DNA from: a virus
Lineage: Duplodnaviria; Caudoviricetes
Virus record (IMG/VR): IMGVR_UViG_3300046824_000124
Coordinates: 1 to 56,758 of that record
Strand: one strand, 5' to 3'
Length of the DNA stretch: 56,758 bases
The notes under the pieces were generated by a model. The model did not search any database and had not been told where the DNA came from. It saw nothing but the letters and a program-made list of their open reading frames with translations. The first letter of the stretch is position 1, and each line of letters begins with the position of its first letter. The position numbers were made by a program, and so were the translations under genes. This document shows, one piece after another, positions 12,380 through 31,455 of this stretch.

Positions 12380-12387
12380 GAGAGAAC

Positions 12388-13896
12388 ATGCAATCGTTTA
12401 TCTCCCGGCTTTTCCCCGGCAATGCCGCGATGACCGCATCCTTTCAGCCCGTCTTGCAGAACGTAGACAGGCAAGGACGCCTGCTCTATTGGATAATGGA
12501 TGCGTACTACCAGGGTAACGCCGTCTATGACCGCTTGCGCCGCACCGAAGCCAGCGGTGATAACCTCGTGGCGTTGCGCAACCCCGTGCAGCGGGTGGTC
12601 GAGAGTTACGCAACCCATGTCTGGCCGGGGACGCTGCCTGATGCGCTACCCATCGAAGCCCTGAACGAGCGCATCATCGAGCCGATCCAGCAACTGTGGA
12701 CGTGGAGTAACTGGGGGGCACGCAAGCAGGTAGCGATCCGCTGGCTGGCGCTCTACGGTGACTTGTTCATCAAGGTCATTCAGACCGAGGACCGGCAGCG
12801 CGTCTTCTTCCAGTTGATCCGCCCGCACTTCGTCACAGAGATGCAGCGTGATGAGCGCGGCGTGCTGGAATATATCCGCGTCGATGTGCCGCAGGCGATC
12901 CGCCAGGGGGATCGCATCGTCCAGATGACGCACACCGAGGTCTGGACCGGCGAGAGTTACCGCCTGTGGGTGCATGACCGCCATAGCGAGCACGATCAGG
13001 TCAAGCTCGAAGACTTGGGTGCGCCGCAGGTAACTAACGCGCTGACCGACTTTGGCATCGACTTCATCCCCATCGTCCACGTGCCATTCCGCGATACGGG
13101 CGATGTGCGCGGCACGGCGGCGGTGACGCACGCGCTGGACAAGATCGATGAATCCAACCGTGTAGCGACGCGGCTGCACGAGACCTTGTTCCGCCATAAC
13201 AAGCCGACGTGGGTGGTGGGTGCGAACAGCGCGGACAAGGACGGTCGCCCGATGTCCGCGCCACGGTTCGCGGGAGCGGACGGCAAAGTGACGGGCACCG
13301 TGTCCGCGGAGATGCCCGATATTGTCTATCTCAATGGCATGGCATCGCTTGATTCACTGATTCCGAATATCAACTACGCGGCCGCGTTAGACATCCTGAA
13401 CGCCATGCTCACTGACCTCGAAGCGGACCTGCCCGAACTCGCCTTCTACCGTCTGCGGGAGTTGAGTCGCACGGGGACGCTCAGTGGCCGCGCGGTGCGA
13501 CTGCTCCTCTCCGATGCCGTCTCACGCATCCTCGAAGCACGCGGCAACGCCGAGGCGGGGTTGGCGCGTGCGGACATGATGGCACTCACCATCGGCGCCA
13601 ACGCGGGGCTGTTTCCGAACATCGGCGCCTATGACAACGGCGACTTTGACCATACGTTCAAAGACCGCCCGGTGATTCCGCTGTCAGACATTGAGGAAGC
13701 CGAGGGTGTGGCGGCACTGGACGGTATCGTCAGTGTCCAGGAGCAATTGCGGCTGCTGTCCTATACGCCGGAGCAGATCGATCAAATCATGGCGGAGCGG
13801 AAAGCGGAACAACCACCACCACCGATTCCCGCGCTCCCCACGGCGGCACCGACCCCGCAGGCGATTGCGCGCAGTAACAACGTCGCCAGTTCGTAG
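12388..13896 (+). CDS. Portal protein (SPP1 gp6-like)
   Basis: 502 aa directly after TerL; YGDLFIKV, FIPIVHVP, SGRAVRL. Confidence 0.85.
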   Translation: MQSFISRLFPGNAAMTASFQPVLQNVDRQGRLLYWIMDAYYQGNAVYDRLRRTEASGDNLVALRNPVQRVVESYATHVWPGTLPDALPIEALNERIIEPIQQLWTWSNWGARKQVAIRWLALYGDLFIKVIQTEDRQRVFFQLIRPHFVTEMQRDERGVLEYIRVDVPQAIRQGDRIVQMTHTEVWTGESYRLWVHDRHSEHDQVKLEDLGAPQVTNALTDFGIDFIPIVHVPFRDTGDVRGTAAVTHALDKIDESNRVATRLHETLFRHNKPTWVVGANSADKDGRPMSAPRFAGADGKVTGTVSAEMPDIVYLNGMASLDSLIPNINYAAALDILNAMLTDLEADLPELAFYRLRELSRTGTLSGRAVRLLLSDAVSRILEARGNAEAGLARADMMALTIGANAGLFPNIGAYDNGDFDHTFKDRPVIPLSDIEEAEGVAALDGIVSVQEQLRLLSYTPEQIDQIMAERKAEQPPPPIPALPTAAPTPQAIARSNNVASS

Positions 13897-17298: not shown

Positions 17299-19350
17299 AT
17301 GGCAGGCAGTAATCGCAATACGATCTGGATGCCGCGCCCGCCCGTTGCGGCCCCGTTCGACATCAACAATGCGTCACCGCAGGCTGAGGGGCTGGTGGCG
17401 TGGATACCGGACACACTGCGGCGAAACCCGCTCGACCAGAACCCGCTCAACGTCACGAACTCCTCCAACACGGTGGCCGCGGACGCGACGATGGGGCAGG
17501 TGTACAACCTGCCCGCCGGGTACATGGAGATCACGGCCCTCAAGCGGGCGGTGGCACTGAATACGGCGTGGTCGGTCGGCTGCTGGGTGCGCTTCAACGC
17601 CGTCACGGGCACGCAGACCGTCGTCGGCGCGGCGAACCAGTCGGTCGGCACGGGGGCAGTGCATATCGCCTCGCGTTCGGCGGGGTCGATCAAAGTCGAG
17701 AAGCCCTCCGCCGCCTTGCTGGTGGATAGCGGTGTCACGCCATCAACGAACACGTGGTATCACGTCCTGTACGTCTACGATGGCACGAACCGCATCTATG
17801 TCAACGGCGTGCAGAAGGCGACGAGCGCGACGGCGGAAATCGCCAACACGCCGACCGCGATCAACATCGGTCGCTACCACGACGCGGGCTTCACGGGTGA
17901 CACGCTCAACGGGCGTGTCATCGATGTGCGCTACTACAATATCGCGGTGCCCGCCGCCGTCGTCTGGCAGATGTGGGCAGCACAGACGCGCTACGAGCTG
18001 TGGCGACCGCTCGCGCCGCTCTTCGCCTTCCCAACGGGCGGCGGCGGCACATCGGTCAGCGACTCTGACACCGGCACGGGCGCGGATGCCGTCTCGGGCA
18101 TTGCCCTCAGTCGCGCCGATAGCGCGGTAGTCAGTGAGGGCGCATCCCTCACGGATACGACGACGGCTGCGGATAGCGGCACGGTTGCCGAATCGCAGGC
18201 CATCGCGCTCGCCCATGCCGATACAGGCACGGGCGCGGATACCGCAACGACGATTGCCCTCGCCCATGCGGACAGCGGCACCGTTGCCGATAGTGCGACG
18301 GGCATCGCGCTCAGTCGCGCAGAGAGCGGATCGGGCGCCGATTCCGTATCGGGCATCGCGTTTACTGCCACCGACGCAGGAACGGTCGCTGACAGCGCGA
18401 CGATCACCGTTCCCATTTCGTCGTCAGATAGCGGCACCATCGCGGACGCAGTAACCGGCCTCGCCCTTACGGCCACCGATGCGGCGTCAGGCACCGAGGG
18501 CGCGACACTCACCGCCACACTCACCGTCGCTGATGCCGGCACCGTTACGGACACTGCCAGTGGGATTGCGCTGACCGCAGCGGATAGCGGCGCAGGCGCT
18601 GAGAGCGCCACCATCAGCGTCCCGGTTAGCGCATCCGATAGCGGTAGTGTTGCCAATGCCGTAGCGGGCATCGCCCTGGCGAGTACGGACAGCGGCGCGG
18701 TTGCCGATGCTGCCAGCCTGACCGCCACCGTCACCGCCGCCGATAGCGGCACCGTCACCGAAGGGCAGACGGTCTCCGCACCCGGCAACCCCACGGGCGC
18801 CGATAGCGGCACCGTGGCGGATGCGGCCACCATCGCCAGTGCTGTTACTGCGGCGGAGAGCGCCGTTGGCACCGACGCCGTTCAGCAGATCGCCCTGGCG
18901 CGCAACGACGCGGGCACCGGAGCAGACGCGGCAGCCATCGCGCTGAGTGCTGCCGAGAACGCGACGGCGACCGATACTGCCAGCAGTGCCGCGGCAATCA
19001 CCCATGCGGATGCCGCGACGGGCACGGACGCACTCGTCGGTATCGCGCTCGCCCGCGGTGATACGGCAACCGTTGCCGATGGTGCGATGGTCACGGCGGT
19101 CACGCTCATCACCGCGAACGATCACGGCACCGTCACGGATGCCGCGTCGATCTTCGGAAGCGTCATCACCATCGGCACGATCACGGCGGGTGTGGGCGTG
19201 GCGAATACCATCACTGCTGGCGTCGGCATCATGACAGGGCTTGAGGCCGACGCGGGCCGCATCACGACCATCAACGGCGATGCCGATACCTTGACGGACC
19301 TCGAAGCGGACACGGCACTCGTGACGACGATCACGGCGGGGGTGGGATAG
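17299..19350 (+). CDS. LamG/ConA-like lectin domain plus long Ala/Thr/Asp repeat fiber
   Basis: WSVGCWVR, TWYHVLYVYDG..RIYVNG, INIG, LNGRVIDVRYYN; then many ~16-19 aa D-S/A-G-T-V-x-D repeats. Confidence 0.85.
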   Translation: MAGSNRNTIWMPRPPVAAPFDINNASPQAEGLVAWIPDTLRRNPLDQNPLNVTNSSNTVAADATMGQVYNLPAGYMEITALKRAVALNTAWSVGCWVRFNAVTGTQTVVGAANQSVGTGAVHIASRSAGSIKVEKPSAALLVDSGVTPSTNTWYHVLYVYDGTNRIYVNGVQKATSATAEIANTPTAINIGRYHDAGFTGDTLNGRVIDVRYYNIAVPAAVVWQMWAAQTRYELWRPLAPLFAFPTGGGGTSVSDSDTGTGADAVSGIALSRADSAVVSEGASLTDTTTAADSGTVAESQAIALAHADTGTGADTATTIALAHADSGTVADSATGIALSRAESGSGADSVSGIAFTATDAGTVADSATITVPISSSDSGTIADAVTGLALTATDAASGTEGATLTATLTVADAGTVTDTASGIALTAADSGAGAESATISVPVSASDSGSVANAVAGIALASTDSGAVADAASLTATVTAADSGTVTEGQTVSAPGNPTGADSGTVADAATIASAVTAAESAVGTDAVQQIALARNDAGTGADAAAIALSAAENATATDTASSAAAITHADAATGTDALVGIALARGDTATVADGAMVTAVTLITANDHGTVTDAASIFGSVITIGTITAGVGVANTITAGVGIMTGLEADAGRITTINGDADTLTDLEADTALVTTITAGVG

Positions 19351-19665
19351 ATGGCGACCTTCAGTGCCACGCTCGGTGACGTCGTGCGGATCGGCAAAGC
19401 GCCGACGCCTATTCTCATCAAAGACGTGAGCGGCAATCTCGTTGATCCCACTACGATCACCGTCACGGCCCTGCGACCGGATGGCACGATGGCATCGCCG
19501 CCGCCGACCGCGGTGCATGAAAGCCTGGGCACCTATCACGTGGATTACGAACCGCCCGTGGAGCGCACGATGGCGGGGCTGCACCGCATCCGCATCGTCA
19601 CGGCCGGCCCGGACGCCGCGTTCGAGTTGGCGATCTGGATTGATCCGTCGCCCTTTGCACCATAG
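19351..19665 (+). CDS. Virion Ig-like/BppU-like small protein
   Basis: DVSGNLVDPTTITVT..RPDGT...GTYHVDY. Confidence 0.7.
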   Translation: MATFSATLGDVVRIGKAPTPILIKDVSGNLVDPTTITVTALRPDGTMASPPPTAVHESLGTYHVDYEPPVERTMAGLHRIRIVTAGPDAAFELAIWIDPSPFAP

Positions 19666-19677
19666 GAGTATGACGCC

Positions 19678-19836
19678 ATGAACACGACACACGCCGGCGT
19701 TGCCTTCCTGATCGCAGCCATCGCCTTCGTGATTATCGGCATCGCGAAGCTTGTCCCGCCGCGCAACAATTGGACGGGGGCGGTGACGGACTTCGCGTTG
19801 GCGGTCCTGAGCGTCGGGCTGCTCCTGACGCAGTGA
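19678..19836 (+). CDS. Small two-TM membrane protein (52 aa, below the track cutoff)
   Basis: AGGAG RBS; MNTTHAGVAFLIAAIAFVIIGIAKL...FALAVLSVGLLLTQ. Confidence 0.65.
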   Translation: MNTTHAGVAFLIAAIAFVIIGIAKLVPPRNNWTGAVTDFALAVLSVGLLLTQ

Positions 19837-19955
19837 TGGCACTCTACATCATCCCCTACCGCTGGATAGAACGCGGCAAGCAATACGTGCTGTATCTGCC
19901 GTTTGCACGCCGTGAGGACGCGGACCGGTTCCGCGAACAAGTGGGTATTCACTGA
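19836..19955 (+). CDS. Small hypothetical protein
   Basis: TGATG coupling. Confidence 0.45.
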   Translation: MALYIIPYRWIERGKQYVLYLPFARREDADRFREQVGIH

Positions 19956-19970
19956 AAAGGAGCCATCGTA

Positions 19971-20585
19971 GTGAGCACGACAACAACCGACCCGACCACC
20001 CAGACCGGAACCGTGCCGGGAACCAACGAAGGTGGTCAGACGGGGAGCGCACCGCCAGCTCAGCCACAAGGCGGGGACGACAAGACCTTTTCCCAGCAGG
20101 CCGTCAACGCACTCATCGGGGCGCGGTTGAAAGAGGCGCGCCAGCAATGGGAGAAGGATCAGAAGGACGCCGCCGAAACCGCCGAGGCGGAAAGGCGCGG
20201 CGACTATGAGACGGCGCTCGCCAAAGAGCGGGAGAAGGCCGCCGCTGCCGAGCGCGAGCGGGACGAAACGAAGCGCCTTGCGAATGAGCGCATCATCCGC
20301 AGTGAGATCCGCTCCATCGCCACTGAACTCCGCTTCGCGGACCCCGCCGATGCCTACCGCTTTGTGGACATGGCCGCCGTGAACGTTGATGACGCCGGCG
20401 AGCCAACGAACGTCAAGGCGCTACTGGAGAAGCTGGCGAAGGACAAGCCGTATCTCCTCGGTGGCGCACCGCAGGGCGGGGCACACATCCCCGGCACGCC
20501 GAACGCCTCGCAGATGACACAAGATGAGTTCCGCGCTCAGGAGAAGGAGCGCGCGCTCCGCTCCGGCAAGTACGCGGCACTCTGA
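19971..20585 (+). CDS. Capsid scaffolding protein
   Basis: KTFSQQAVNALIGARL, coiled coil, ADPADA, KDKPYL. Confidence 0.85.
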   Translation: MSTTTTDPTTQTGTVPGTNEGGQTGSAPPAQPQGGDDKTFSQQAVNALIGARLKEARQQWEKDQKDAAETAEAERRGDYETALAKEREKAAAAERERDETKRLANERIIRSEIRSIATELRFADPADAYRFVDMAAVNVDDAGEPTNVKALLEKLAKDKPYLLGGAPQGGAHIPGTPNASQMTQDEFRAQEKERALRSGKYAAL

Positions 20586-20632
20586 ACCCACTGATGTAAA
20601 CGATAGATATCAGAGCAAAAGGAGTCTTCATC

Positions 20633-21028
20633 ATGGCTGAGATCACGCGCGTTGGCATCCCGTCACTCGCTTCTCTCCTCCTCCCGGCGAACTGCAAGCA
20701 TACCGGCCTGTACGCGGGCGAGGCGCTACTCGCGGGTGACGCCTGCTATATCAAGGCGGCCGACAACAAGGTCTGGAAGAGCACCGGCGCTGCGGCGAAC
20801 GCAGCAGCGGTCGTGGACGGCTTCGCGGCCCTTCCCGCACCGGTGGGCGAGGCAGTGACGTTGGTCTTCAACTGCACGATTCAGTACGGCGGCGTGGTCG
20901 CCGCGACCCCGATGTACCTCTCCGGCACAGTGCCGGGCGGTCTCGCGGATGCGGCATCCACGGGCGGTACAACGGTCATCGCCAAGGCGGTTGACACCAC
21001 GCGCATCTACGTGCAGAAGAGTTATTGA
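20633..21028 (+). CDS. Capsid decoration/cement protein
   Basis: AGEALLAGDACYI...G.A...YLSGTVPGGL; between scaffold and major capsid. Confidence 0.75.
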   Translation: MAEITRVGIPSLASLLLPANCKHTGLYAGEALLAGDACYIKAADNKVWKSTGAAANAAAVVDGFAALPAPVGEAVTLVFNCTIQYGGVVAATPMYLSGTVPGGLADAASTGGTTVIAKAVDTTRIYVQKSY

Positions 21029-21041
21029 GTGAGGTATGGCG

Positions 21042-21140
21042 ATGAGTGATCGGGACATCTACCTCGTCATCCGTCGCGCCATCCTCGCCGTCCTCGGTGC
21101 GTTCGACAAGCGGTTCAACGTCACCACGACAGAAAAGTAA
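21042..21140 (+). CDS. 32-aa leader/regulatory peptide, paralog of 24411-24518
   Basis: GAGGT RBS; MSDRDIYLVIRRAILAVLGAFDKRFNVTTTEK. Confidence 0.7.
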   Translation: MSDRDIYLVIRRAILAVLGAFDKRFNVTTTEK

Positions 21141-21249
21141 ACAACCCATCGGCCACCGATCCCTCGCGGGACGCTCGCCATGACATGAGGGCCACCGTCG
21201 CGTTATGCGCGCTCGCTCCTCTCGGTTCACCACCAGAGGAGCATTGCAC
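21141..21249 (+). promoter_or_regulatory. Structured leader with RBS-sequestering hairpin before the major capsid gene
   Basis: GGCCACCG twice; GCTCCTCT (21215-21222) pairs with AGAGGAGC (21235-21242), TTCACC at the apex. Confidence 0.7.
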
Positions 21250-22311
21250 GTGCCAAACTATGGAACCTTTACCAGCCTGGATACCCTGGCAACACTGAGC
21301 AACACGACGGTGGCACAACTCGGCGAGGACACGGCATTCGCGGCTATCGACGCCGCGCTCGCCGCGCACAACGCTATCATGCAGGATCTCCTGTCGTCGC
21401 TTGTGGATCGGACGACGGACCGGTTGCGCCGCTACGGTGGTCCCGCCAACATGGCGATGGACGAGATCGATGAGATGGGCACGCCGGACGCGCAGAAGGT
21501 GGCGGCCGGGAGCAATGTCGGCTTCCCCCTGCGCCTCTACGGCGGTTCGCTCCAGTGGACGCGCAAGGCGTTCCAGAACATGATGGCGAACGAGTTCGCC
21601 GCGCAGGTGACGGGCATGATGGATGCGGACAAGAACGTCGTTATCCGCCAGATCAAGCGCGCGATCTACACGCCGACGAATAACACGACGTACGTGGACC
21701 GCCTGGTGGACGGCGTGGTGCTCCCCCTGCGGGCGCTCGTCAATGCTGATAGCCAGCCCTTGCCGCTCGGCCCGAACGGTGAGGTATTCACCGCGTCATC
21801 GCACACGCACTATCTGGCCAACGCAACCTATACCGCTGCGTCCCTGACTTCGCTCATCTCAACGGTGACGGAGCACTACGGCAACGGCAACATCATCGTC
21901 TGCATCAACCAGGCGGACGAGGCGGCCACCCGCGGCTTCACGGGTTTTGTCGCCTACATCGACCCGCGGCTGATGAACCTGACGACGGCGATCACGGCGC
22001 GTGACTCGCTCGACAATCTGGTGAACATCTACAATCGGCGCATCGGCCTCTTCGCGGGCGCGGAAATCTGGGTCAAGCCGTGGGTACTCTCCGGCTATCC
22101 GTTCTGCTACCTCGAAGGGCAGCCGAAGCCGCTCGTCATGCGCACCCGTCCCACCGGCGGCGGCGACCTGTCGCTCGTCTTCGAGGACGAAGAGCATCCC
22201 CTGCGCGCACGGACGTATGAGCGCGAGTTCGGGATCAGTGTATGGAATCGCACTAATGGCGCGGTTCTCGATAATGCGCACGGCTCGTACACGGCGCCGA
22301 CCATTACCTAA
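21250..22311 (+). CDS. Major capsid protein
   Basis: ~353 aa after scaffold and decoration genes; GTG start with AGAGGAG RBS. Confidence 0.85.
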   Translation: MPNYGTFTSLDTLATLSNTTVAQLGEDTAFAAIDAALAAHNAIMQDLLSSLVDRTTDRLRRYGGPANMAMDEIDEMGTPDAQKVAAGSNVGFPLRLYGGSLQWTRKAFQNMMANEFAAQVTGMMDADKNVVIRQIKRAIYTPTNNTTYVDRLVDGVVLPLRALVNADSQPLPLGPNGEVFTASSHTHYLANATYTAASLTSLISTVTEHYGNGNIIVCINQADEAATRGFTGFVAYIDPRLMNLTTAITARDSLDNLVNIYNRRIGLFAGAEIWVKPWVLSGYPFCYLEGQPKPLVMRTRPTGGGDLSLVFEDEEHPLRARTYEREFGISVWNRTNGAVLDNAHGSYTAPTIT

Positions 22312-22361
22312 GCATGTCCTACGGATCGCTGACTAGCGACAACACAGAACGGAGCAGAATC

Positions 22362-22565
22362 GTGGCAGAGCGGAAAGAACAGCAGCCCCAGGTGCAGCCG
22401 CAGGACGATCAGTTCCAGCGCGTCTCACGGGCAACCGCCGAGGCGCAGCAGGAAGCGGAGAAGTTGCAACTGGACGAGACCGAACCGGGCGGCCGGTATG
22501 TGGTTGGCGATCAGGTCGTCAACAGCGAAGGCGAGCCCGTCAAGGACACGAAGAAGGACGAGTAG
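22362..22565 (+). CDS. Small head-associated protein
   Basis: GGAG RBS; LDETEPGGRYVVGDQVVNSEGEP. Confidence 0.65.
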   Translation: MAERKEQQPQVQPQDDQFQRVSRATAEAQQEAEKLQLDETEPGGRYVVGDQVVNSEGEPVKDTKKDE

Positions 22566-22570
22566 CCACA

Positions 22571-23005
22571 ATGCCCGCACCACTCAGCTATACCGAAGCC
22601 GAGCTTGCCGCCTACATGATCGCGACCCTCGCGGACGTGGCGACGGCGTTGGGATTGACCGCTGCCAGCACGCAGATCACCGAGGCGGTCTATGCCACTG
22701 AGATGGCGTGTGTGGTCACGGACATCGTGACGGCGACGGATATGGCGATGGTGCGGGCCATCGGTGCGCGTGAGGCGTGGCGCGTGGCAATGCGATCAGC
22801 AGCGTCTCGGTATGACGCCGCCATCGCCGGTGGCCCCAGTGCCCGCCGCTCGCAACTCTATGCCCAATGCCGGGATAACTATCTTGCTGCCGTGACGGAC
22901 GCGGGCGCATATGACACCGTAGGCAACGTGATTGGTGTCGCCAGCGTCACCTATGCACCCGATGTCTACGGGCCGCTGAATGCAACAACGGATGAGTTTG
23001 GATGA
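22571..23005 (+). CDS. Head-tail adaptor
   Basis: Position and size; SARRSQLYAQC motif. Confidence 0.65.
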   Translation: MPAPLSYTEAELAAYMIATLADVATALGLTAASTQITEAVYATEMACVVTDIVTATDMAMVRAIGAREAWRVAMRSAASRYDAAIAGGPSARRSQLYAQCRDNYLAAVTDAGAYDTVGNVIGVASVTYAPDVYGPLNATTDEFG

Positions 23006-23370
23006 GCGCCTTCTTCGATGCCGCAACAATGGCGGACCTGACGGCGCTCGATCTGTCCGCTATGCCCTCCACGGCGACCATCTCCCATACCGCCCCCGGC
23101 ACCGTCAATCCTGACGGCAGTACCGAGCCGGGGACGGTGACGACCACCGATGTTCCCGCTCGCTTCGTGGATACGGTGACGAGCATGCGCGAGACATTGA
23201 TTTCCATGAAGGTGACGGCGCAGGTGGACGGCGTGCTGAACATCCCGCTCGGCACCGATGTGACCACGGACGACACCGTGACGATGGGCGGGGTGACGTT
23301 CCAGATCGTCGGCACGAACGAGAATGTCTCGTACCGCACGAGCATCGCGCTCGCGGTGAGGAAGTCATGA
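23002..23370 (+). CDS. Head closure protein
   Basis: PARF...IPLGTDVTTDDTVTMGGVTFQIV. Confidence 0.75.
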   Translation: MSAFFDAATMADLTALDLSAMPSTATISHTAPGTVNPDGSTEPGTVTTTDVPARFVDTVTSMRETLISMKVTAQVDGVLNIPLGTDVTTDDTVTMGGVTFQIVGTNENVSYRTSIALAVRKS

Positions 23371-23675
23371 CCTTCACCGAGATTGACCGCATCATCGCCA
23401 ACCTCGAACGCGCCGACGCCATCATTGCCAAGTTCAGCGATCTGATCCTGGCGGAGATGCAGCGGCTGGTGCCCGTGAAAACCGGCGCACTCAAACGCAG
23501 CATCGCCGCGCATCTGGAGGGCATGGTGGCGGAGATCACGGCGGGTGAAGGTCTCACGTATGCGGCACATGTCGAATACGGCACAAGCAGCGCCGCTGCC
23601 CACCCATTTTTCAGGGTGGCTGTCGAAAGATATGCCGATGCCTTCCGCGCGGAAGTGCAGCAGTTGCTCGGATAG
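23367..23675 (+). CDS. HK97 gp10-like neck protein
   Basis: VPVKTGALKRSI...YAAHVEYGTS..AAHPFFR. Confidence 0.9.
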   Translation: MTFTEIDRIIANLERADAIIAKFSDLILAEMQRLVPVKTGALKRSIAAHLEGMVAEITAGEGLTYAAHVEYGTSSAAAHPFFRVAVERYADAFRAEVQQLLG

Positions 23676-23684
23676 GGGCGCACG

Positions 23685-24146
23685 ATGCCGATTACCAGTG
23701 CCACGCGCGCCCTTGATGTGGACGCCCTTATTGACGGCGCTCGCGCCGCCCTGCTCGCCAACAGCACCATCGCCACGGCGCTCAATACCGCCGCGAACCC
23801 GAAGCGGATCGCCAATGAGGTGATCGCGCCGGGAGTCACGGCGCCGTACATCGTCCTCAACCTGCCCTCGACCGTCTATGCATCACCCTATGGCGAAGCG
23901 GTCGTCAACGTCCTCATGGATGTGAGCGTCTACACCGATGGCGAAAGCACGACGCTCGTGCGCTCGCTCCTCAAGGCGTGCATCACGGCACTCGTGGACA
24001 CGGTGTGGACGGCGACGGGCTTTGTCATCTGGTCCGTCTCGCTGGAGGAGGACGGTGCGGGTATTCGGTCACTGACGGACGTTCTCAATGGCGTCATCAC
24101 GAGGGGGCGTCAGGTCACGTTGCGCATTCGGGCGCAAAAGGTTTAG
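23685..24146 (+). CDS. Tail terminator (DUF3168-like)
   Basis: Position; APYIVL, DVSVY. Confidence 0.7.
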   Translation: MPITSATRALDVDALIDGARAALLANSTIATALNTAANPKRIANEVIAPGVTAPYIVLNLPSTVYASPYGEAVVNVLMDVSVYTDGESTTLVRSLLKACITALVDTVWTATGFVIWSVSLEEDGAGIRSLTDVLNGVITRGRQVTLRIRAQKV

Positions 24147-24163
24147 CACAGGAGGCACACGAC

Positions 24164-24364
24164 ATGGCTGAGAGCACGACGAAAGCACAGACCGCCGAGG
24201 AGAAGCCCGTCGCGGTGGCGAAGGCGACGACGCCGGAGGAGGAAGAGGTGCAGCGCATCCACGATGAGCGGATGAAGAATGCCGACAAGCACGCCGCGAT
24301 GGCGGCCCGCACCGCCGCGAAGGCAGCGGCCGCACAGTTCCGCCCCGTGAAGGCAGACGAATAG
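24164..24364 (+). CDS. Small hypothetical protein
   Basis: AGGAGG RBS. Confidence 0.65.
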   Translation: MAESTTKAQTAEEKPVAVAKATTPEEEEVQRIHDERMKNADKHAAMAARTAAKAAAAQFRPVKADE

Positions 24365-24410
24365 CGGCAGAACGGTTGCCGGATGATGGCGAGTGAGGAG
24401 GCGTGCATGC

Positions 24411-24518
24411 GTGGAAGATAAGAAGCGCCTCTGGCTCGGCATCAAGCGCGCCCTCGGTGTCATCATCAGCGCGCTCGATGTCTTCTTCGGCACCGATAGA
24501 CCCACCACCGACAAGTAA
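24411..24518 (+). CDS. 35-aa leader/regulatory peptide, paralog of 21042-21140
   Basis: GAGGAGG RBS, GTG start; MEDKKRLWLGIKRALGVIISALDVFFGTDRPTTDK. Confidence 0.7.
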   Translation: MEDKKRLWLGIKRALGVIISALDVFFGTDRPTTDK

Positions 24519-24621
24519 CACCACCCCCTAGGCCGCACGGATCATCCGTCCCGCTGATGGGCAGGAGCCGCCGCATGGTGCGCCCGCTCTTTGTGATTCA
24601 CCTCACAAGGAGCAACACCCC
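24519..24621 (+). promoter_or_regulatory. Structured leader with RBS-sequestering hairpin before the major tail gene
   Basis: GCTCTTTGTGA (24586-24596) TTCACC TCACAAGGAGC (24603-24613); GGCCGCAC and GCCGCCG motifs upstream. Confidence 0.7.
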
Positions 24622-25317
24622 ATGCCAGCAGCGAATCTTGTACCGATCACAGGCGCGGACGGGTACGTGGCGATGATCAACAGCACGTCCGTTCCCGTGA
24701 CCGCTGAGACGTTGTCAAACATCACGACGATGCCCGGTGGCAACCTCGTCTACCCGGCAAAGCAGATTTATCAGGTGACGGCTCGGGCGCACAAAGTGAT
24801 GGATCCGAGGGCCACACCCGTGGTCTACGTGGGCGGCGTCTCGCAGTCCCCGACGCTGTACCGCATCTTCTGGGGCGCCGGGATCATCTTCTTCTTCGCG
24901 CCACGCGCTGAAGCGACGCCGGCCGTGACGATGGACTACAGCTACATGCCGACCGCTAGCGCGACGGATGTGGTCGGTGTGCTCCACGTGAACAACTGGC
25001 AACTCAACATGAGCGCCAACCAGATCGAGGGTGATGAGTACGGCACGATCATCGCCCCGTCCTACCGCGGCAAGCTCGGCGGCACGTGGCAGTTCGACGC
25101 ACTCGGTGCGAGCAGCAAGATTGACCTCTTTAATCTTATGCTGACGCAATCATTTTTCACCTTCGCACTATATGAGACGATCAGTGGTAATCGTCTCTGG
25201 GTAGTGTATGGTGACTTGACGTCGAACCCGATCAACGCGCCCTCGCAGGGCATGGTGGCGGGCACGATCAACGGCGGCATGCGATACACCCCGACATTTC
25301 TAAACGAAGCACTATAG
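24622..25317 (+). CDS. Major tail (tube) protein
   Basis: Position before the chaperones; PITGADG, NWQLNMSANQIE, G.WQFD. Confidence 0.75.
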   Translation: MPAANLVPITGADGYVAMINSTSVPVTAETLSNITTMPGGNLVYPAKQIYQVTARAHKVMDPRATPVVYVGGVSQSPTLYRIFWGAGIIFFFAPRAEATPAVTMDYSYMPTASATDVVGVLHVNNWQLNMSANQIEGDEYGTIIAPSYRGKLGGTWQFDALGASSKIDLFNLMLTQSFFTFALYETISGNRLWVVYGDLTSNPINAPSQGMVAGTINGGMRYTPTFLNEAL

Positions 25318-25341
25318 GTTGGTGTTTCGATGATCGCGCGA

Positions 25342-25410
25342 TGTGCGGGCGGGGTGGCTCTCAACCCTCCACCTCGTCGGCACACCGCACAAAAACCAGA
25401 AGGGTTGAGA
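25342..25410 (+). promoter_or_regulatory. Pseudoknot-like leader of the tail chaperone gene
   Basis: Hairpin 25342-25391 whose loop TCTCAACCCT (25359-25368) is complementary to AGGGTTGAGA (25401-25410) next to ATG 25413. Confidence 0.5.
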
Positions 25411-25412
25411 CA

Positions 25413-25868
25413 ATGGCAGGCAAGACCATCGAATCCACCGCACCGACGACCATCGAAGAAGTGCGCGCTCTCGTCATGCAGAAGTACCGCGCCGTGCCGT
25501 TTGACCATCCCGCGGGCTACGGCCGCATGGAGGTGGCGAAACTGAAGCGCCACGAGTACCAGGCGATCACCGAGGCAGTGCGCCGCACGGATGGCACATG
25601 GGATCTCGAACTGCAAGACCGGATGGCGGTTGCTTTCGGCCTCGTGGAGCCGAAGCTCGCGGCAACGCCAGAGCAGGCGATGGAGGAACTGAAGGAGTAC
25701 CCGAACGATTTCATCCAGCCCATCGCCAAGAAGGTCTGGGATTTGACCAACGATTACCGCAATGAGGCGGAAAAGAAGGGTGCCGGCGCGGACGTGCTCC
25801 CTTTTACCAAGACGAGTTCAAACGGTACGGCCTCGCCGCCGCCACCGGACGCCTCATCGTCGAAGTAA
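25413..25868 (+). CDS. Tail assembly chaperone (G)
   Basis: Between the major tail and tape measure genes; GLVEPKL. Confidence 0.8.
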   Translation: MAGKTIESTAPTTIEEVRALVMQKYRAVPFDHPAGYGRMEVAKLKRHEYQAITEAVRRTDGTWDLELQDRMAVAFGLVEPKLAATPEQAMEELKEYPNDFIQPIAKKVWDLTNDYRNEAEKKGAGADVLPFTKTSSNGTASPPPPDASSSK

Positions 25869-26161
25869 ATGCCCTCACCGATGAGGAGATTGACCGACAG
25901 TGCGACTTTTACGAACTGTTTTGCTCTGGCGACCCCTCACCCGCCAGCCCCGTTGACCACCCCGCCCGCGTCTTCGGGCTGATCCTCAAAGAGATGCGTG
26001 AGAGCGCCAGGAAGAGCGAGACGACGGCACTGCCGGATGTCATCCCGTGGGAGCAATTCCGCGCCCTCCAGGCTGCCATCCCGCCCGCCGAAGTCCATGA
26101 GCCCGACCCCGAACGCGCCGCGACGATTGACCAGATCGTGGCCGCATCCCTCGCTACCTAG
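25799..26161 (+). CDS. Tail assembly chaperone GT extension via programmed -1 frameshift
   Basis: Slippery C CCT TTT at 25799-25805 in the correct phase; the -1 frame (YQDEFKRYGLAAATGR...) is open to TAG at 26159-26161. Confidence 0.8.
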   Translation, partial: PFYQDEFKRYGLAAATGRLIVEVNALTDEEIDRQCDFYELFCSGDPSPASPVDHPARVFGLILKEMRESARKSETTALPDVIPWEQFRALQAAIPPAEVHEPDPERAATIDQIVAASLAT

Positions 26162-26175
26162 CATCGGAGCATTGC

Positions 26176-29100
26176 GTGCCTGACTCGATTTTGCGTAGCA
26201 GAATTGAAATCGTTGGTGTGCGCGAAGCCCTCGCGGATTACCGCGACCTGCGCACCGCCATGCAACAGGTAAGCACCACTGGTGCGACGGCGCGTGTCTC
26301 GCTGGATGACACCACGGCACGCGCACGACTCGCGGAGTTTCGGGCGGAAACACAGCGATTGAACGCCGTCAACACGCGCCTGAAGGTGGACGCAGACACG
26401 CAGCCCGCCGTACTCAAGTTACGTGCGGTGGATACTGAGACGAAGAACCTCGTCGCCCGTCGCAACCTGATGCGGTTGGAGCTCGACAACACGCCCGCCC
26501 TCTTGTCTTTGCGGCAGTATGAAGCGGAGACGAAGCGGATTCAGGCACAGCAGCGTGGGAGCGGCGGTGGTGGCGGAAGCATCCGCGGCGCGATTAGCAG
26601 TGAGGTGGGTGGCGGCATTGCGGGCGGCGCCGTGGCCGGGGGTGCCATCCTCGCGGGCGGGCTAGCGGCGAAGGAGATCAAGGATACCGTCGCCGCGTCC
26701 ATCGACCTCAATAGCAAGCTTCAGCAAGCCAATATCACCTTCACGACTTTCCTCGGCAGCGAGCAGGCGGCACAGGAGCATTTGCAGGAGTTGCAGCGGT
26801 TCGCCGCGACAACGCCGTTCCAGTTCCCCGACCTCGTGGATGCCTCCCGTCGTCTGCAAGCGATGGGCTTTTCCGCCAAAGAGGTCATTCCCGATTTGCG
26901 GGCGATTGGCGGCGCGGTGTCGGCGCTCGGCACAGGCACGGAGGGCATCAATCGCATTACGCTCGCCCTCGGGCAGATGCAGCAGAAGGGCAAGGTCACG
27001 GGCGAGGAGTTGCGGCAGTTGCAGGAGGCGGGCATTGACGCCACCGGCTACATTGCCAAAGCCCTCGAAACGACCACGGCCGATGTGCTGGCGAAATCCG
27101 AGAAGGGGCAGATCAGCGGTCGAACGGGCGTCAACGCTATCATCAGCGGACTGGCGGCTGATCCCCGGTTCGCCGGACTCCTTGAGGCGCAGAGCCGGTC
27201 GTTCGCGGGCGCGATGTCCAATATCCAGGACTCGGCGCAGATGGCACTGGCGCAGGGACTGAAGCCGCTGTTTGAGGCGCTGAACGATGGCGCCACAGCA
27301 TTAGCGAAGTTCACATCCTCTGAGACCTTCACGAAGGGTGCCGAGCAGTTCGCGCAAGTGCTGCACGAGGATATTGAGGCGATCAAGACGCTCTCGGCAG
27401 AGGCGAAGAACATCGCTGATCCGTTCCTGCCGCTGATCGACACCGCGACAAAGTACACGGTCAATCTCCGTACGGTTGCGGAAGCACTGAATGCCGTTGC
27501 GGCGATCACCAACCAGATCCACGGCCAGCCCTATGAGTCGGTCGGGTCAGCGAACGTGGACACCTCCTCCGTCAACGCGCTGATGGGCGGCGGGGCGGGG
27601 GCGCGCTTCCTGCAAAACAATGCCGCGTCGAGCGTCATCTCCGGTCTGACGACACAGGTCCGTGAGGGCGCGATCACCGCGGATCAGGCGCAGAAGCAGT
27701 GGGACGCCCTGGTACAAACCTTCGGCGCGCTCTACGGCAACGTTGATGCCGTGTCTGCCCTCTTCTCCACGAAACTTGCCCAGGCAACGAAGGACGCGAC
27801 TGCGAATGCCGCCAAGCTCCGTGATGAGCAGGAGCAATATCAGGCTAATCTCAAGGAGATGGCGAAGTATCAGGGCTTGGGTGCCAACCCCGAGGACATC
27901 AGCCGTGCCATCTTCGGCGTGACGGGCACGGGTGATGCGGCAACGACGGGGCAGATCAAGCGCGCCCAGGACGCCCTCAATGCCCTCGATCAGCAGCAGA
28001 AGCAACTGGAGACGGACACGCGCTCGGCGTGGCAGTCGATGGCGCAAGCGGTCGCGGGGTTCAGTTCCTCGCAGGGATTGCGCGGTATCGCTAACCTCTC
28101 CACCGACTTGCAGAAGGCGAACGCGGAACTGGCGCGTGTGGGGCAGACCTCCACCGCGACCTCGGGGCTGGCGAAGATCGCGGATCAGTTCCAGGCGATT
28201 GCCGATGCCGAGGATGCCGCGTCATCGTCCCTCAAGGGCTATCAGTTGACGCTCACTGAGACGGACCGCCGCATCCAGCAGTTGCAGGCATTCCGTGGGC
28301 AGATCGTGGAAGCGGTGCAGCAGGCAGACAAGGATCGCGGCGCGGGTGTCGCCACGCCACAGGAACTCGACCTGCTCAATAAGTATCAGCCGATCCTCAC
28401 CAATATCGACACGCAGATCCGCGGCTTGCAGAGCAACAAGATTGGCGATCTGCTCGGCATCGCGGACGCCTATCCCGATCTGAAGGCATTTGACGACACC
28501 TCACGCGATCTCGTGAGTCAGTACGGGGGCGGGAAGAACCTGCAACTGACGCTGCAAGCGGACACCAAAGATGCGTCGGACGCGATCAACGCCATCGTCA
28601 ATCCGCCAAAGCCGTACGAGACCACCGTTCGCGTGAACTACATCAACGTGGATGGCAGCCCCGCGGGCACCGGTCCCGTCCTTGGCCCGCCATCACCCGG
28701 CGGTGCTGGCTATGCGCGGCCGACGACAATCCGCTCTACGGGTGGCGGTCCGTACGGGAATGACACGCTCACGCAAGGTGGTGCGGGTGGCGGAGGGCTT
28801 GGCTATCAGCCGCTCTCGCAGGCGCAGTACGGACAGATCGTGTCGAGCGGCCCGCTGGCGAACCCGCAGGTGTACGCCGGCGTCATGGCGGCTGCGCAGA
28901 AGTACGGGGTCGATCCGCGGTTGCTCCTTGCCTTCGTAAAGAATGAGGGCGTTGCGCCCTCGCTCGCGGCCGTCAACAACTTCGGCGGCATCAAGGGCAC
29001 GGGCGGGCCGGCCGCGCCCGCGAATGAAGGCGGCACGTATGCTGCCTACTCATCGCCGCAGGCATTCTTCGAGGAGTTGGCGCGACTCATCACGCAGGGC

Positions 29101-31455
29101 GATAAGACCTATGCGAGTGGATTCGCCAGTGGCGACCTCGGCGCTATCCGCCAGCACTATGTCGCGGGCAATGCGCCGCCGTCGAGCGCGCAGCAGGCGA
29201 ATATCGCGAACACGGTCTCGAACTATAACCAACTGACGCAGCAGTATCCCGGCGGCGGCACCGATGATGTGCCATCTGGTGTCGTCTCGAATCTGCGGCA
29301 GCAGATCGTCCAGAAGGCGCTCCAGAGCGTCGGACAGGACAAACTCGTCAACCTCTGCGAGCAGTTCGTAGAGGAGACGGTGCAGGCGATCACCGGGCAG
29401 CGTGGTGCCACAGGGAAGAATGAGCTCAGCGCCAATGCCGCCCTCGCCACCGCGAAGCAGAAAGGGCTCGTCACCACTAATCCGCAACCGGGCGATCTTG
29501 TCTACTACGGCGACGCGCAGGCGGGACATGTCGCCATCTACATGGGCAACGGCAAGCAGATCAGCACCTACGATAAGGGCAACGTCAACGACCCCGAGGC
29601 GCGCAAGATTCACATCGAGCCCGTTGGCGCCGGCGCACAATACGTCCGCGTCCCCGGTCTCTCCGATGGTCCCGCGGGCAGCAACGTCGTCGGCAACGCG
29701 GCACTCGCGGCGGCGGGCGGTCTACCGCATCCGGTGGATATCGGCGCGACGACGGCAGCGGCAACCAGTAGCCTCGGCACGACCAATCTCACCTCGCCCA
29801 TCTCAGGTGCGGCAGGCGGACTCCACGAGGCGGGACAGGCGGCACGTGAGGCGGATAGCGCGGTCGGCAAGTTGCTTGCCACGCTGAATAGTCAGGATCT
29901 CTCTGCCTCACTGAGCAAGTTTCAGGAGATGCGCGGCGTCTTTGACCAGATCGCGCAGGCAAAGTTCCCGAACGAACCGATCCGTGCAGCGGACGACGCC
30001 TTACAGCAGGGTATCGGCTTCCTCGGCGCGTGGGCGCAGGCATTGCAGGCAATCCGTGGACAGACGGACGGGCTGGCGGCCGCGCAACAGAAGATCACGG
30101 AGATTGTTGGCGGGCCGATGGCGGCGAACCTCAATAGCCAACTCGATCACATGAACACGCTGTCACAAATCCATTCGCACATTACCGACCTCACGCAGCA
30201 GCGCAAGGAGTTGGAATCCCAGCACAACGCAACACTGGCATCACGGCAGCAGCAGGACAGCGGCATTCAGCGGGCGCAACAGCAGCAGCAGTTCATCCAG
30301 GGCGAGCAGGATCGGGCCCGCCAGCGCCAGCGGCAGGCGCAGCAGAACGATATTCAGGATCAGCAGAACGCCGCGAACGATGCCTGGACGAACGAATCCC
30401 GCATCTGGGATGATCGCATCGCCCGCCTCCAGCATTACGGCACCGACCGCTTCCGCCAACTCTCGAACGAAAAAGACGCCCTCGAAGCACTGAAGAAGAG
30501 CCAGGACGCGCTCAATCGCTCGCAGGAACTCAACCTTGCGGGCAATCTCGGGCTCGCCTTCGCGCATGGCGGTCCGAATGCCGCTCGTGACGCCTCAGCC
30601 CGCCTCTCGATCACGCGCCTGTCTGATGCGAATGCGGCCGATCAGCGGAATACCCGTCTCGATGCCGTCAATGACCTCCTGGCGAAAGAACAGAAGGTCG
30701 CAAGCGATCAACTGTTCGATCTGGAGCAGCAGCGCACGGCGGCCTCGCGGGCGCATGAAGACCGCATGACCGCCATCGAGCGTGAGAGTGAGGCAGAACA
30801 GCGGGCGGCGGCGGCACAGGACGACGCCATCGCGGGACAGCGGGCGGCACAGCAGGAAGCGGACGCCGAACGCGCCAACGCTCTTGAAGATCAGCGTGCG
30901 GCCGAGGATGCGGCCTATCAGCAGTCGCTCGATTCCATCGATGCGCAGATTCAGCAGTACCAGGCACTCGCGGATACGGAGCAACAGGCACTCGACGCGC
31001 TCACACAGGCATTCAATCTGATGACGCAGGGCGGTAGTCAGATCGCGCAGATCCTCGGCAGCGCCGTCTCGTCGGCGGGTGCGGCACAGGGCTTCCTTGA
31101 CGCGCAACCGGTCGGCGGTGGCTCCATCCGCCGTCTCGGTGGCAAGGCGGCAGGCGGCTTCATCCCCGTGGGCGGCAGTGCCCTCACGGGTGACGCGGCG
31201 GGCGGCGTGGCGACGCCGTTCACGGAAGAAGTCAAAGTGACGCCGCAGGGCGCGGTCGTGACGCCGCTCGCCAATCGCCCGAGCGCATCGGGTGGCGGGG
31301 ACATCACCATCAACATCGGTGGCGACACCATCCTATCTGCTCAAGCCCTCGCGGATATTCGCCGCTACATCGAACAGAAGAAGCGCGAGGCCATCACGGA
31401 AGCGCGGCAGGCCGTGCCGCTCACGCTGCGCGGTCAGGGAAGGGTGGGGCACTAA
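26176..31455 (+). CDS. Tape measure protein with lysozyme/glucosaminidase-like and NlpC/P60-like domains
   Basis: 1759 aa; FAATTPFQ...ALGQMQQKGKVTGEELRQL; KYGVDPRLLLAF...NNFGGIK; LCEQFV...PGDLVYY...GHVAIYMGNG. Confidence 0.95.
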   Translation: MPDSILRSRIEIVGVREALADYRDLRTAMQQVSTTGATARVSLDDTTARARLAEFRAETQRLNAVNTRLKVDADTQPAVLKLRAVDTETKNLVARRNLMRLELDNTPALLSLRQYEAETKRIQAQQRGSGGGGGSIRGAISSEVGGGIAGGAVAGGAILAGGLAAKEIKDTVAASIDLNSKLQQANITFTTFLGSEQAAQEHLQELQRFAATTPFQFPDLVDASRRLQAMGFSAKEVIPDLRAIGGAVSALGTGTEGINRITLALGQMQQKGKVTGEELRQLQEAGIDATGYIAKALETTTADVLAKSEKGQISGRTGVNAIISGLAADPRFAGLLEAQSRSFAGAMSNIQDSAQMALAQGLKPLFEALNDGATALAKFTSSETFTKGAEQFAQVLHEDIEAIKTLSAEAKNIADPFLPLIDTATKYTVNLRTVAEALNAVAAITNQIHGQPYESVGSANVDTSSVNALMGGGAGARFLQNNAASSVISGLTTQVREGAITADQAQKQWDALVQTFGALYGNVDAVSALFSTKLAQATKDATANAAKLRDEQEQYQANLKEMAKYQGLGANPEDISRAIFGVTGTGDAATTGQIKRAQDALNALDQQQKQLETDTRSAWQSMAQAVAGFSSSQGLRGIANLSTDLQKANAELARVGQTSTATSGLAKIADQFQAIADAEDAASSSLKGYQLTLTETDRRIQQLQAFRGQIVEAVQQADKDRGAGVATPQELDLLNKYQPILTNIDTQIRGLQSNKIGDLLGIADAYPDLKAFDDTSRDLVSQYGGGKNLQLTLQADTKDASDAINAIVNPPKPYETTVRVNYINVDGSPAGTGPVLGPPSPGGAGYARPTTIRSTGGGPYGNDTLTQGGAGGGGLGYQPLSQAQYGQIVSSGPLANPQVYAGVMAAAQKYGVDPRLLLAFVKNEGVAPSLAAVNNFGGIKGTGGPAAPANEGGTYAAYSSPQAFFEELARLITQGDKTYASGFASGDLGAIRQHYVAGNAPPSSAQQANIANTVSNYNQLTQQYPGGGTDDVPSGVVSNLRQQIVQKALQSVGQDKLVNLCEQFVEETVQAITGQRGATGKNELSANAALATAKQKGLVTTNPQPGDLVYYGDAQAGHVAIYMGNGKQISTYDKGNVNDPEARKIHIEPVGAGAQYVRVPGLSDGPAGSNVVGNAALAAAGGLPHPVDIGATTAAATSSLGTTNLTSPISGAAGGLHEAGQAAREADSAVGKLLATLNSQDLSASLSKFQEMRGVFDQIAQAKFPNEPIRAADDALQQGIGFLGAWAQALQAIRGQTDGLAAAQQKITEIVGGPMAANLNSQLDHMNTLSQIHSHITDLTQQRKELESQHNATLASRQQQDSGIQRAQQQQQFIQGEQDRARQRQRQAQQNDIQDQQNAANDAWTNESRIWDDRIARLQHYGTDRFRQLSNEKDALEALKKSQDALNRSQELNLAGNLGLAFAHGGPNAARDASARLSITRLSDANAADQRNTRLDAVNDLLAKEQKVASDQLFDLEQQRTAASRAHEDRMTAIERESEAEQRAAAAQDDAIAGQRAAQQEADAERANALEDQRAAEDAAYQQSLDSIDAQIQQYQALADTEQQALDALTQAFNLMTQGGSQIAQILGSAVSSAGAAQGFLDAQPVGGGSIRRLGGKAAGGFIPVGGSALTGDAAGGVATPFTEEVKVTPQGAVVTPLANRPSASGGGDITINIGGDTILSAQALADIRRYIEQKKREAITEARQAVPLTLRGQGRVGH

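Follow-up and report, generated by a model that had tools for sequence, protein, structure and literature searches.

What role is played by two small open reading frames (ORFs) that, each followed by a structured leader, precede the genes for the major capsid protein and the probable major tail protein of a tailed phage (Caudoviricetes)? Both lie in IMG/VR viral record IMGVR_UViG_3300046824_000124 (56,758 bp, high GC, an estimated ~75% complete), which was analysed over its whole length and is referred to here as the window. A preliminary description, made from the letters of the DNA, had proposed a translational switch in which the peptide, or a factor binding the GCCRC repeats of the leader, opens a buried ribosome-binding site (RBS). 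Comparison with related loci indicates that both small genes and their leaders belong to a widespread, unnamed phage cassette that is placed before genes for abundant virion proteins and probably controls their expression. In the reading that we favour, with a rough probability of 0.45, the cassette is portable and consists of a peptide and a tandem-hairpin leader; binding of the peptide would stabilize the second hairpin, relieve a terminator or a hairpin that sequesters the Shine-Dalgarno (SD) sequence, and raise production of the virion protein.

Two small genes and their leaders

The elements of the two modules, each a peptide gene with its leader, were located as follows; d1 and d2 are the first and second hairpins of a leader, and HMM is a profile hidden Markov model of the peptide family that was built from other proteins.

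21042..21140, + strand: peptide gene 1 (32 aa; small-peptide family), family HMM E 7.9e-15
21151..21179, + strand: leader 1 hairpin d1, GGC-C-A-C / stem with bulged A, loop UCGC / C-U-C-GCC; bulge-tolerant parser
21190..21217, + strand: leader 1 hairpin d2, GGC-C-A-C / stem with bulged U / C-U-C-GCU; bulge-tolerant parser
21215..21242, + strand: SD-sequestering hairpin 1, 8-bp base plus GGU/ACC; no U-run
24411..24518, + strand: peptide gene 2 (35 aa, GTG start), SD GAGGAGG at 24395-24401, family HMM E 2.4e-11
24531..24555, + strand: leader 2 hairpin d1, GGC-C-G-C-ACGGA-UCA-UCCGU-C-C-C-GCU; parser; part of the minimum-energy fold
24566..24588, + strand: leader 2 hairpin d2, AGC-C-G-C-CGCA-UGG-UGCG-C-C-C-GCU; parser
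24586..24613, + strand: SD-sequestering hairpin 2, 11 bp; no U-run; the same design with another stem sequence occurs in the related locus L105

Both small ORFs are preceded by a good SD sequence. An alternative ATG at 21036 would lengthen peptide 1 to 34 aa, and a GAGG 8 nt upstream favours the start at 21042. Both start forms have been called as genes in public collections, with variants of 90% identity, as has peptide gene 2, and close variants of both ORFs are found on other contigs. BLASTP of peptide 1 against peptide 2 returned nothing. BLOSUM62 local alignment of the two scored 39, while shuffles averaged 17.3+-3.6 and reached that score in 2 of 5000 cases; the pair thus beat 4998 of 5000 shuffles and is matched by one family HMM, consistent with the paralogy claimed in the preliminary description. 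An AlphaFold2 model of peptide 2 consists of one helix (residues 2-26, mean pLDDT 82), and a two-copy complex prediction for the same peptide scored 0.02, which is evidence neither way.

Leader 1 spans 21141-21249 (109 nt) and leader 2 spans 24519-24621 (103 nt). The two GCCRC motifs reported for each leader are read directly as GGCCAC at 21151 and 21190, GGCCGC at 24531 and AGCCGC at 24566, and they form the 5' strands of the d1 and d2 hairpins. Within a module the two hairpins are alike: C-A-C faces C-U-C in both hairpins of leader 1, with a bulge after CG in each, and C-G-C faces C-C-C in both hairpins of leader 2. The inner stem of d1 in leader 1 lies within the minimum-energy fold, and locus L019, the closest relative of module 1, keeps this stem with a changed loop (loci from other contigs carry L numbers). 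Hairpin d2 of leader 1 is absent from the minimum-energy fold and has its final 3 nt in common with SD hairpin 1. In leader 2, d2 corresponds to the family's conserved CCGCCGCA..GCGCCCG box, and the homologous helix covaries in relatives. A covariance model (R1) built from two unrelated leaders, those of L072 and L065, found its best window match in leader 2 (24540-24590, 23.8 bits, E 0.0016).

The final hairpin, said to bury the SD ahead of the capsid and tail genes, is present in the minimum-energy fold of both leaders. Its arms are GCTCCTCT/AGAGGAGC at 21215-21222/21235-21242 in leader 1 and GCTCTTTGTGA/TCACAAGGAGC at 24586-24596/24603-24613 in leader 2. Fold energy gave a z of -2.5 for leader 1 (3 of 200 shuffles as good) and of -3.45 for leader 2 (0 of 200). 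Folding of positions -45 to +6 around 38 crude SD-bearing starts in the window (mean -13.6 kcal/mol, sd 4.4) placed the capsid start first (-22.7 kcal/mol) and the tail start fourth (-19.7), which bears out local structure at both. Related designs with the SD in a hairpin arm occur in L105, L061 and L112, and in L019 the pairing of SD hairpin 1 is kept through a changed 3' arm.

The TTCACC placed at the apex of both hairpins is indeed found there (21226-21231, and as the loop at 24597-24602). It is shared beyond the window only with the close relative L019, and its absence from the high-GC relatives L105 and L081 rules it out as a feature of the family. Two further interpretations of TTCACC were discarded: as a promoter element it would leave no room for a -10 before the start codon, and mimicry of the 16S rRNA 3' end was considered and rejected. 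A boxA-like CGCUCUUU in leader 2 proved to be the stem of the SD hairpin. L019 carries a perfect hairpin of ~57 nt inserted in the SD hairpin loop (~348-404), with TTCACC kept 3' of the insert. In leader 2, the fold of lowest energy joins the 5' half of d2 (GCAUGG) to CCAUGC over the tail start codon and encloses the SD hairpin (24572-24579 with 24619-24626); this pairing could be the route by which d2 frees the tail start, or else it could be due to chance.

A peptide family and a linked RNA element

Relatives of the peptides were sought with a profile made from peptides 1 and 2 plus three related sequences; of 1.84 billion cluster representatives, 104 matched at E<=1e-3, and almost all of these have 30-84 aa. 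Family features were read from 44 of the 104. The aligned core is M-x-D-R-x-[LF]-W-L-x-[IV]-R-R-A-L-L..A-[IF]-[DE]-x-R-[YF]; it is N-terminal, and the tail between core and stop ranges from ~3 to >25 aa. As found in the cassette, the peptide has 30-45 aa and is mostly a single amphipathic helix. No Cys4 pattern occurs in the 44 sequences. Peptides 1 and 2 had no Pfam match at E<=0.1, and ten family members searched against PHROGs and ten against Pfam (E<=1) gave matches only at E 0.06-0.4, short of the cut-offs; the source names of members are 'hypothetical protein' and, once, 'uncharacterized membrane protein'. Three members (P0012, P0043 and P0050; 55-69 aa) are fused double repeats of the core, an arrangement that hints, at the level of sequence, at a working unit with at least two helices.

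A degenerate DNA pattern for the core matched 81 stretches of viral contigs, almost all of them true members by HMM; the loci found in this way, together with the window, L010 and L019, make up 64 distinct peptide loci. Across these loci, codon-position entropy was 0.98, 0.57 and 1.62 bits, so that the third position varies most. Among differing codons, 13873 of 32121 (43%) were synonymous in frame, compared with 3489 of 32512 (11%) and 1879 of 32224 (6%) in the other frames. Given this in-frame excess and the gene calls in public collections, the small ORFs are coding as described: the peptide is a real conserved gene whose core is under purifying selection.

Several other searches were narrower in yield. 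The exact back-translated DNA pattern of peptide 1 had no match among viral contigs, a Tyr-type pattern for peptides like peptide 1 found 5 stretches with 0 family members, searches for related loci with the tail protein or with an alignment of the two peptides confirmed nothing, and a protein-atlas search gave no usable match. A scan of genome contigs produced 22 pattern matches, only 6 of them family members, and all 6 lie on contigs of metagenome-assembled genomes of mixed phyla, which point to no particular host. Among 50,697 isolate phage genomes, a DNA search found no close relative of the window, and near and distant DNA searches together with tblastn found no relative of the module, with matches at chance level only (E 0.2-0.9).

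The non-coding stretch after the peptide gene, usually ~60-180 nt, contains a shared RNA element in contigs of 44-72% GC. Hairpins d1 and d2 are built alike: a base helix of 3 bp and a capped stem are separated by two C.C mismatches (the first sometimes U.C), with a single Watson-Crick pair between them. Under a strict definition, the 9315 nt downstream of peptide stop codons contain 45 copies of the motif, where shuffles predict 0.75 and the remainder of the loci has 0.10 per kb (a 47-fold enrichment), and tandem pairs of such hairpins are confined to modules. The central pair is found as G-C, C-G, A-U and U-A; d1 and d2 agree in it in the window and in L083, and disagree in L072, L065, L117 and L129. 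Loops of 3-8 nt vary in sequence (GUAA, GCAA, UUCG, CUAGU, UCU and others), and the conserved bases sit in the stem mismatches. No curated Rfam family matches the leaders: a search of window positions 20000-26000 at E<=10 gave chance-level matches only, off the leaders, and searches of 15 relative loci at the gathering threshold plus 5 at E<=1 gave nothing on the leaders. Both parts of the cassette are therefore new to curated libraries, the peptide having no Pfam or PHROG entry and the RNA motif no Rfam entry.

Gene and RNA are linked in both directions. Starting from the peptide, strict detectors found the RNA in 42 of 64 loci and looser evidence in 8 more, and 2 loci end at a contig edge. 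Starting from the RNA, a pattern for the RNA only matched 29 viral loci, 20 of which were already known peptide loci; the 9 new ones comprised 4 with a peptide, 1 ambiguous, 1 without and 3 chance matches. The genes that follow are diverse. BLASTP clusters with annotated representatives included scaffolding protein (14 loci), protease-capsid fusion (6), MuF-like (5), major tail (4 and 2) and large terminase (1), and a further cluster of 3 consists of the window tail gene and its homologues in L081 and L105. Downstream genes vary from one module to the next, which makes feedback by what they encode unlikely; what stays the same across modules is the peptide. In 35 of 64 loci its aligned start falls between -7 and +4 nt relative to the end of the ORF before it. 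Among the loci fetched by their capsid genes (L002-L050, including duplicates between collections), a module stands before the capsid gene only in L019, whose capsid is 88% identical, and in L010/L026 the peptide precedes the scaffold region; the small number of capsid relatives with a module implies that the cassette is sporadic among related phages. The gene behind the module in L051 (4185-5294) resembles the Mu-like prophage I protein, a protease/scaffold, at E 2.3e-5, just under the Pfam cut-off.

The distance between peptide gene and RNA is not constant. Of 62 modules, 21 have a -10-like hexamer after the stop codon, where 8.9 would be expected (11 are perfect TATAAT and 9 are of the extended TG type), and inserts of 220-870 nt separate the two parts in other modules. 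In L053, L101, L124, L130 and L161 the insert measures 220-430 nt and apparently holds small extra ORFs. In L054 a GIY-YIG plus NUMOD3 homing endonuclease gene (11893-12765, minus strand) lies between peptide gene and RNA on the opposite strand.

These distances bear on the possibility of classical leader-peptide attenuation in cis (ermC, SecM type), in which a ribosome on the small ORF would remodel the leader and the peptide sequence would matter only inside the ribosome. Such a scheme would suit the promoterless modules, in which d1 is 9-16 nt after the stop and hence near a terminating ribosome; 30-45 aa is also about what the exit tunnel fits, and the peptide sequence is conserved whatever the downstream gene. 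In many modules, however, a promoter, an insert of 220-430 nt or the 870-nt endonuclease gene parts the ORF from the RNA, and an N-terminal core with a tail of such variable length leaves no fixed stall site relative to the RNA. The fixed short distance from ORF to hairpin that characterizes attenuators of the trp and ermC type is thus missing here, and we consider attenuation in cis improbable. The promoter-like hexamers and inserted ORFs also mean that the peptide must act in trans, if it acts at all.

The switch and its proposed control

To measure covariation we used 20 leaders aligned by MAFFT before the structure was known. In this alignment d2 was 94.9% paired, with columns 52-74 occupied by AU in 10 and GC in 10 leaders and columns 51-75 by AU in 10 and GC in 6; slid controls were 33-40% paired, compared with 77%. 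RNAalifold on the same alignment recovered only a terminator, with a 10-bp stem followed by a U-run and 5 pairs with double changes. The 5' arm of this terminator occupies columns 68-77 and the 3' strand of d2 columns 67-75, so that columns 68-75 are common to both, and column 74 covaries with two different partners, one in d2 and one in the terminator. Since the two helices use the same strand, they are mutually exclusive. Among 45 parsed modules, 25 end in a hairpin with at least 5 U in the next 9 nt, and this hairpin takes in 7-9 of the 9 nt that form the 3' strand of d2. An antiterminator/terminator switch is therefore well supported in the relatives.

Family-wide conservation, enrichment and covariation contradict the notion that the modules reflect chance or a decaying duplication without function. 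This notion could appeal to there being only two module copies in the window, with leaders ~55-60% alike, and we regard it as very nearly untenable.

The strong U-run terminators, the excess of -10-like hexamers, the absence of the module from most capsid relatives (which suggests that it comes and goes) and the homing endonuclease inside one module could instead point to a stand-alone small RNA gene, with a promoter, an RNA of ~80-100 nt and a terminator, or to a mobile promoter/terminator insulator like the T4 PeSL cassettes; the RNA would then act in trans or only punctuate the late operon. Two thirds of the modules, including both in the window, have no such promoter, however, and neither the covariation of d2 as an antiterminator alternative nor the burial of the SD instead of termination in the window variants is explained in this way. 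We judge a small RNA gene or insulator to be quite unlikely.

When d1 and d2 were enforced in the leader of L072, the terminator was lost and the energy changed from -38.7 to -22.8 kcal/mol, a cost of 16 kcal/mol. Hairpin d2 is therefore far weaker than the terminator and needs help to form. Hairpin d1 has the same mismatch design and no overlap with the terminator, which argues that the mismatches serve recognition and do more than weaken d2.

The required help need not come from the peptide. Tandem hairpins might constitute the whole device, acting alone on RNA polymerase, like the HK022 put RNA, or with a conserved host factor, with the peptide having another job or just travelling along. 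The switch can indeed be explained without the peptide, L165 carries the RNA without it, and the peptide is hydrophobic rather than arginine-rich. On the other hand, the peptide core is under purifying selection; the peptide-RNA linkage is two-way across contigs of 44-72% GC and holds before unrelated downstream genes; d2 alone is so weak that some stabilizer is needed; and any host factor would need to be common to hosts that differ greatly. Control by RNA without the peptide is accordingly the less attractive explanation, and we hold it to be unlikely.

We favour, instead, the cassette in which the peptide controls the leader. The peptide would be made from the upstream late transcript and would bind the two like hairpins, probably as an oligomer. 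Binding would stabilize d2, which is weak alone, and formation of d2 would relieve the terminator or the sequestering hairpin, giving more of the abundant virion protein. By analogy, the peptide-plus-RNA cassette, itself new, would work like known protein-dependent attenuators. The output in most relatives, as read from their sequences, is transcription termination rather than translation. For the high-GC variants, which include the window and others and in which the final hairpin lacks a U-run and encloses the SD, the output is probably translation initiation. A sigma-70 promoter scan of window positions 19000-27000 found 0 sites, and terminator-like sites in the same region were at the level of shuffles. 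The translational switch first proposed for the two abundant virion proteins thus survives as a regulatory device, in which the GCCRC repeats are functional elements and, in relatives, d2 is the alternative to a terminator; its translational output does not extend to most relatives and, as set out below, opening of the RBS is not explained by d1 and d2 in a simple manner.

Several observations weigh against control by the peptide, or against its application to the window. What points to the peptide as the RNA-binding factor is the tight two-way gene linkage only, from which we infer the role, and this linkage is imperfect: ~12 peptide loci have no RNA by the detectors used, and L165 is the converse case. 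Family sequences are hydrophobic, and their few basic residues (RR plus K/R-R) set them apart from RNA-binding peptides of the arginine-rich kind. As the parser selects for pairing, pair counts from it are circular, and the independent evidence consists of the enrichment and the MAFFT-based counts only; in the latter, d1 was poorly aligned and 58.6% paired. Model R1 scored 8.7 bits on leader 1 (E 4, not significant), so that assignment of the leader 1 hairpins depends on the parser and on likeness to leader 2. In both window leaders d2 and the SD hairpin overlap by only 3 nt (GCU), and with d1 and d2 enforced, at a cost of 12-13 kcal/mol, 5 of the 6 SD bases were still paired. Simple strand competition therefore does not explain how the RBS is opened in the window. 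The peptide may nevertheless act there in the direction proposed, with a signal passing through the 3-nt overlap; its role, and the way in which the SD variant of the window would work, are put forward as hypotheses.

A stronger form of this proposal, which we advance only tentatively and with the balance tilted against it, is that a single helix of ~35 residues acts as an RNA-binding antiterminator with sequence specificity, one of the smallest known, that recognizes a new element, the tandem hairpins in which two C.C mismatches flank one pair. It would serve as a plug-in switch before abundant virion genes, and the window would hold two diverged, possibly orthogonal pairs that have been rewired from termination to RBS control.

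If control by the cassette is as proposed, dozens of uncultured phage lineages (44-72% GC) have in common an unnoticed way to time or boost the synthesis of capsid, scaffold and tail. Two C.C mismatches that enclose a single covarying pair, present twice in tandem, would make a clean and testable recognition element, and the switch is small enough (~35 codons plus ~100 nt) that it could serve as a compact orthogonal regulator. It would also illustrate that genes of fewer than 40 codons, routinely unannotated in phage genomes, can be conserved regulators.

Known systems and neighbouring genes

Among known regulators, the ANTAR antiterminators (AmiR, NasR, EutV) are similar in having two tandem, similar leader hairpins, the second overlapping a terminator, with a protein thought to bind both. 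The overlap is found in the relatives, where it covers 7-9 of 9 nt in the 25 terminator-type modules, and is reduced to 3 nt in the window. ANTAR targets, however, are hexaloops with conserved loop bases, whereas the cassette loops have 3-8 nt and the conserved C.C mismatches are in the stem, and the factor proposed for the cassette is a single helix of 30-45 aa. The ANTAR domain (PF03861) had no match in the window, and none in 14 control genomes either. The BglG/SacY/LicT-RAT systems likewise have a weak antiterminator hairpin with internal loops that overlaps the 5' arm of a terminator and needs a bound protein dimer. They differ in that the RAT is a single hairpin, the CAT domain has ~55 aa and is accompanied by phosphotransferase system (PTS) regulation domains, and the target is a sugar operon rather than phage structural genes. 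The CAT RNA-binding domain (PF03123) was not found in the window, and the controls matched in 4 genomes.

The analogy drawn in the preliminary description was with Mu Com, lacking its zinc finger. Com, a small phage protein, is thought to act on an RBS-burying hairpin in the late mom mRNA, and the window variant ends in such a hairpin, so the comparison is reasonable as regards function. The cassette peptide falls outside the Com family: Com is a zinc ribbon of ~62 aa, the cassette peptides have no Cys pattern, modelled peptide 2 is a single helix free of Cys, and the output in most relatives is termination. Zn_ribbon_Com (PF10122) gave no match in the window, with the control genomes silent as well. 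From lambda N-boxB/nut it is known that a short helical peptide segment can recognize an RNA hairpin, and from HK022 put that two stem-loops in a phage leader can defeat terminators; both are cases of processive antitermination through RNA polymerase, and N is arginine-rich, whereas the cassette is a local switch between alternative structures that is backed by covariation.

The conAn system of Gram-positive conjugative plasmids, as described (PMC8191782), has a large RNA element and a processivity factor that is a protein, both located where a long operon begins. There, too, a protein gene and the RNA region just downstream form an antitermination device; the cassette, compared with conAn by description only, is far smaller, with a peptide of ~35 aa and a tandem hairpin of ~60 nt that stand directly in front of individual structural genes. 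Literature searches turned up no account of either the peptide or the RNA. A 2023 catalogue of candidate structured RNAs from IMG/VR reports candidates upstream of capsid genes, many of them with terminators (PMC10690425), and its supplementary tables may list the motif.

The genes that the two modules precede in the window are these.

21250..22311, + strand: major capsid protein gene, GTG start; phrog_3990 major head protein, E 1.4e-30
24622..25317, + strand: probable major tail protein gene, assigned by position only; homologues in L081 and L105 also lie behind a peptide module

The best named relative of the capsid protein is that of Micrococcus phage Kurnik, which at 26% identity is too distant to indicate a host. 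The tail gene had no family match in PHROG or Pfam; its position is after the tail completion gene and before two short ORFs and an ORF of 1759 aa (26176-31455). The scaffolding protein is encoded at 19971-20585 and the tail completion protein (PF11367) at 23685-24143.

An int-alpA RNA (RF02996) was detected ~1.5-2 kb downstream of the module in the same structural clusters, just upstream of another ORF start: in L065 (11059-11126, 49.2 bits), L072 (7443-7511, 35.1 bits, gathering score 35.8) and L056 (2100-2162, 25.3 bits). It was not found in window positions 20000-26000.

Four further studies (X2-X5; shares 0.96 to 0.05) include metagenome runs from soil and rhizosphere with contigs identical to window positions 20950-24700, so the phage of the window occurs in these habitats; none of the runs listed was an RNA run. 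Over the same interval, contigs assembled from four DNA runs were identical wherever they covered it and added no variation.

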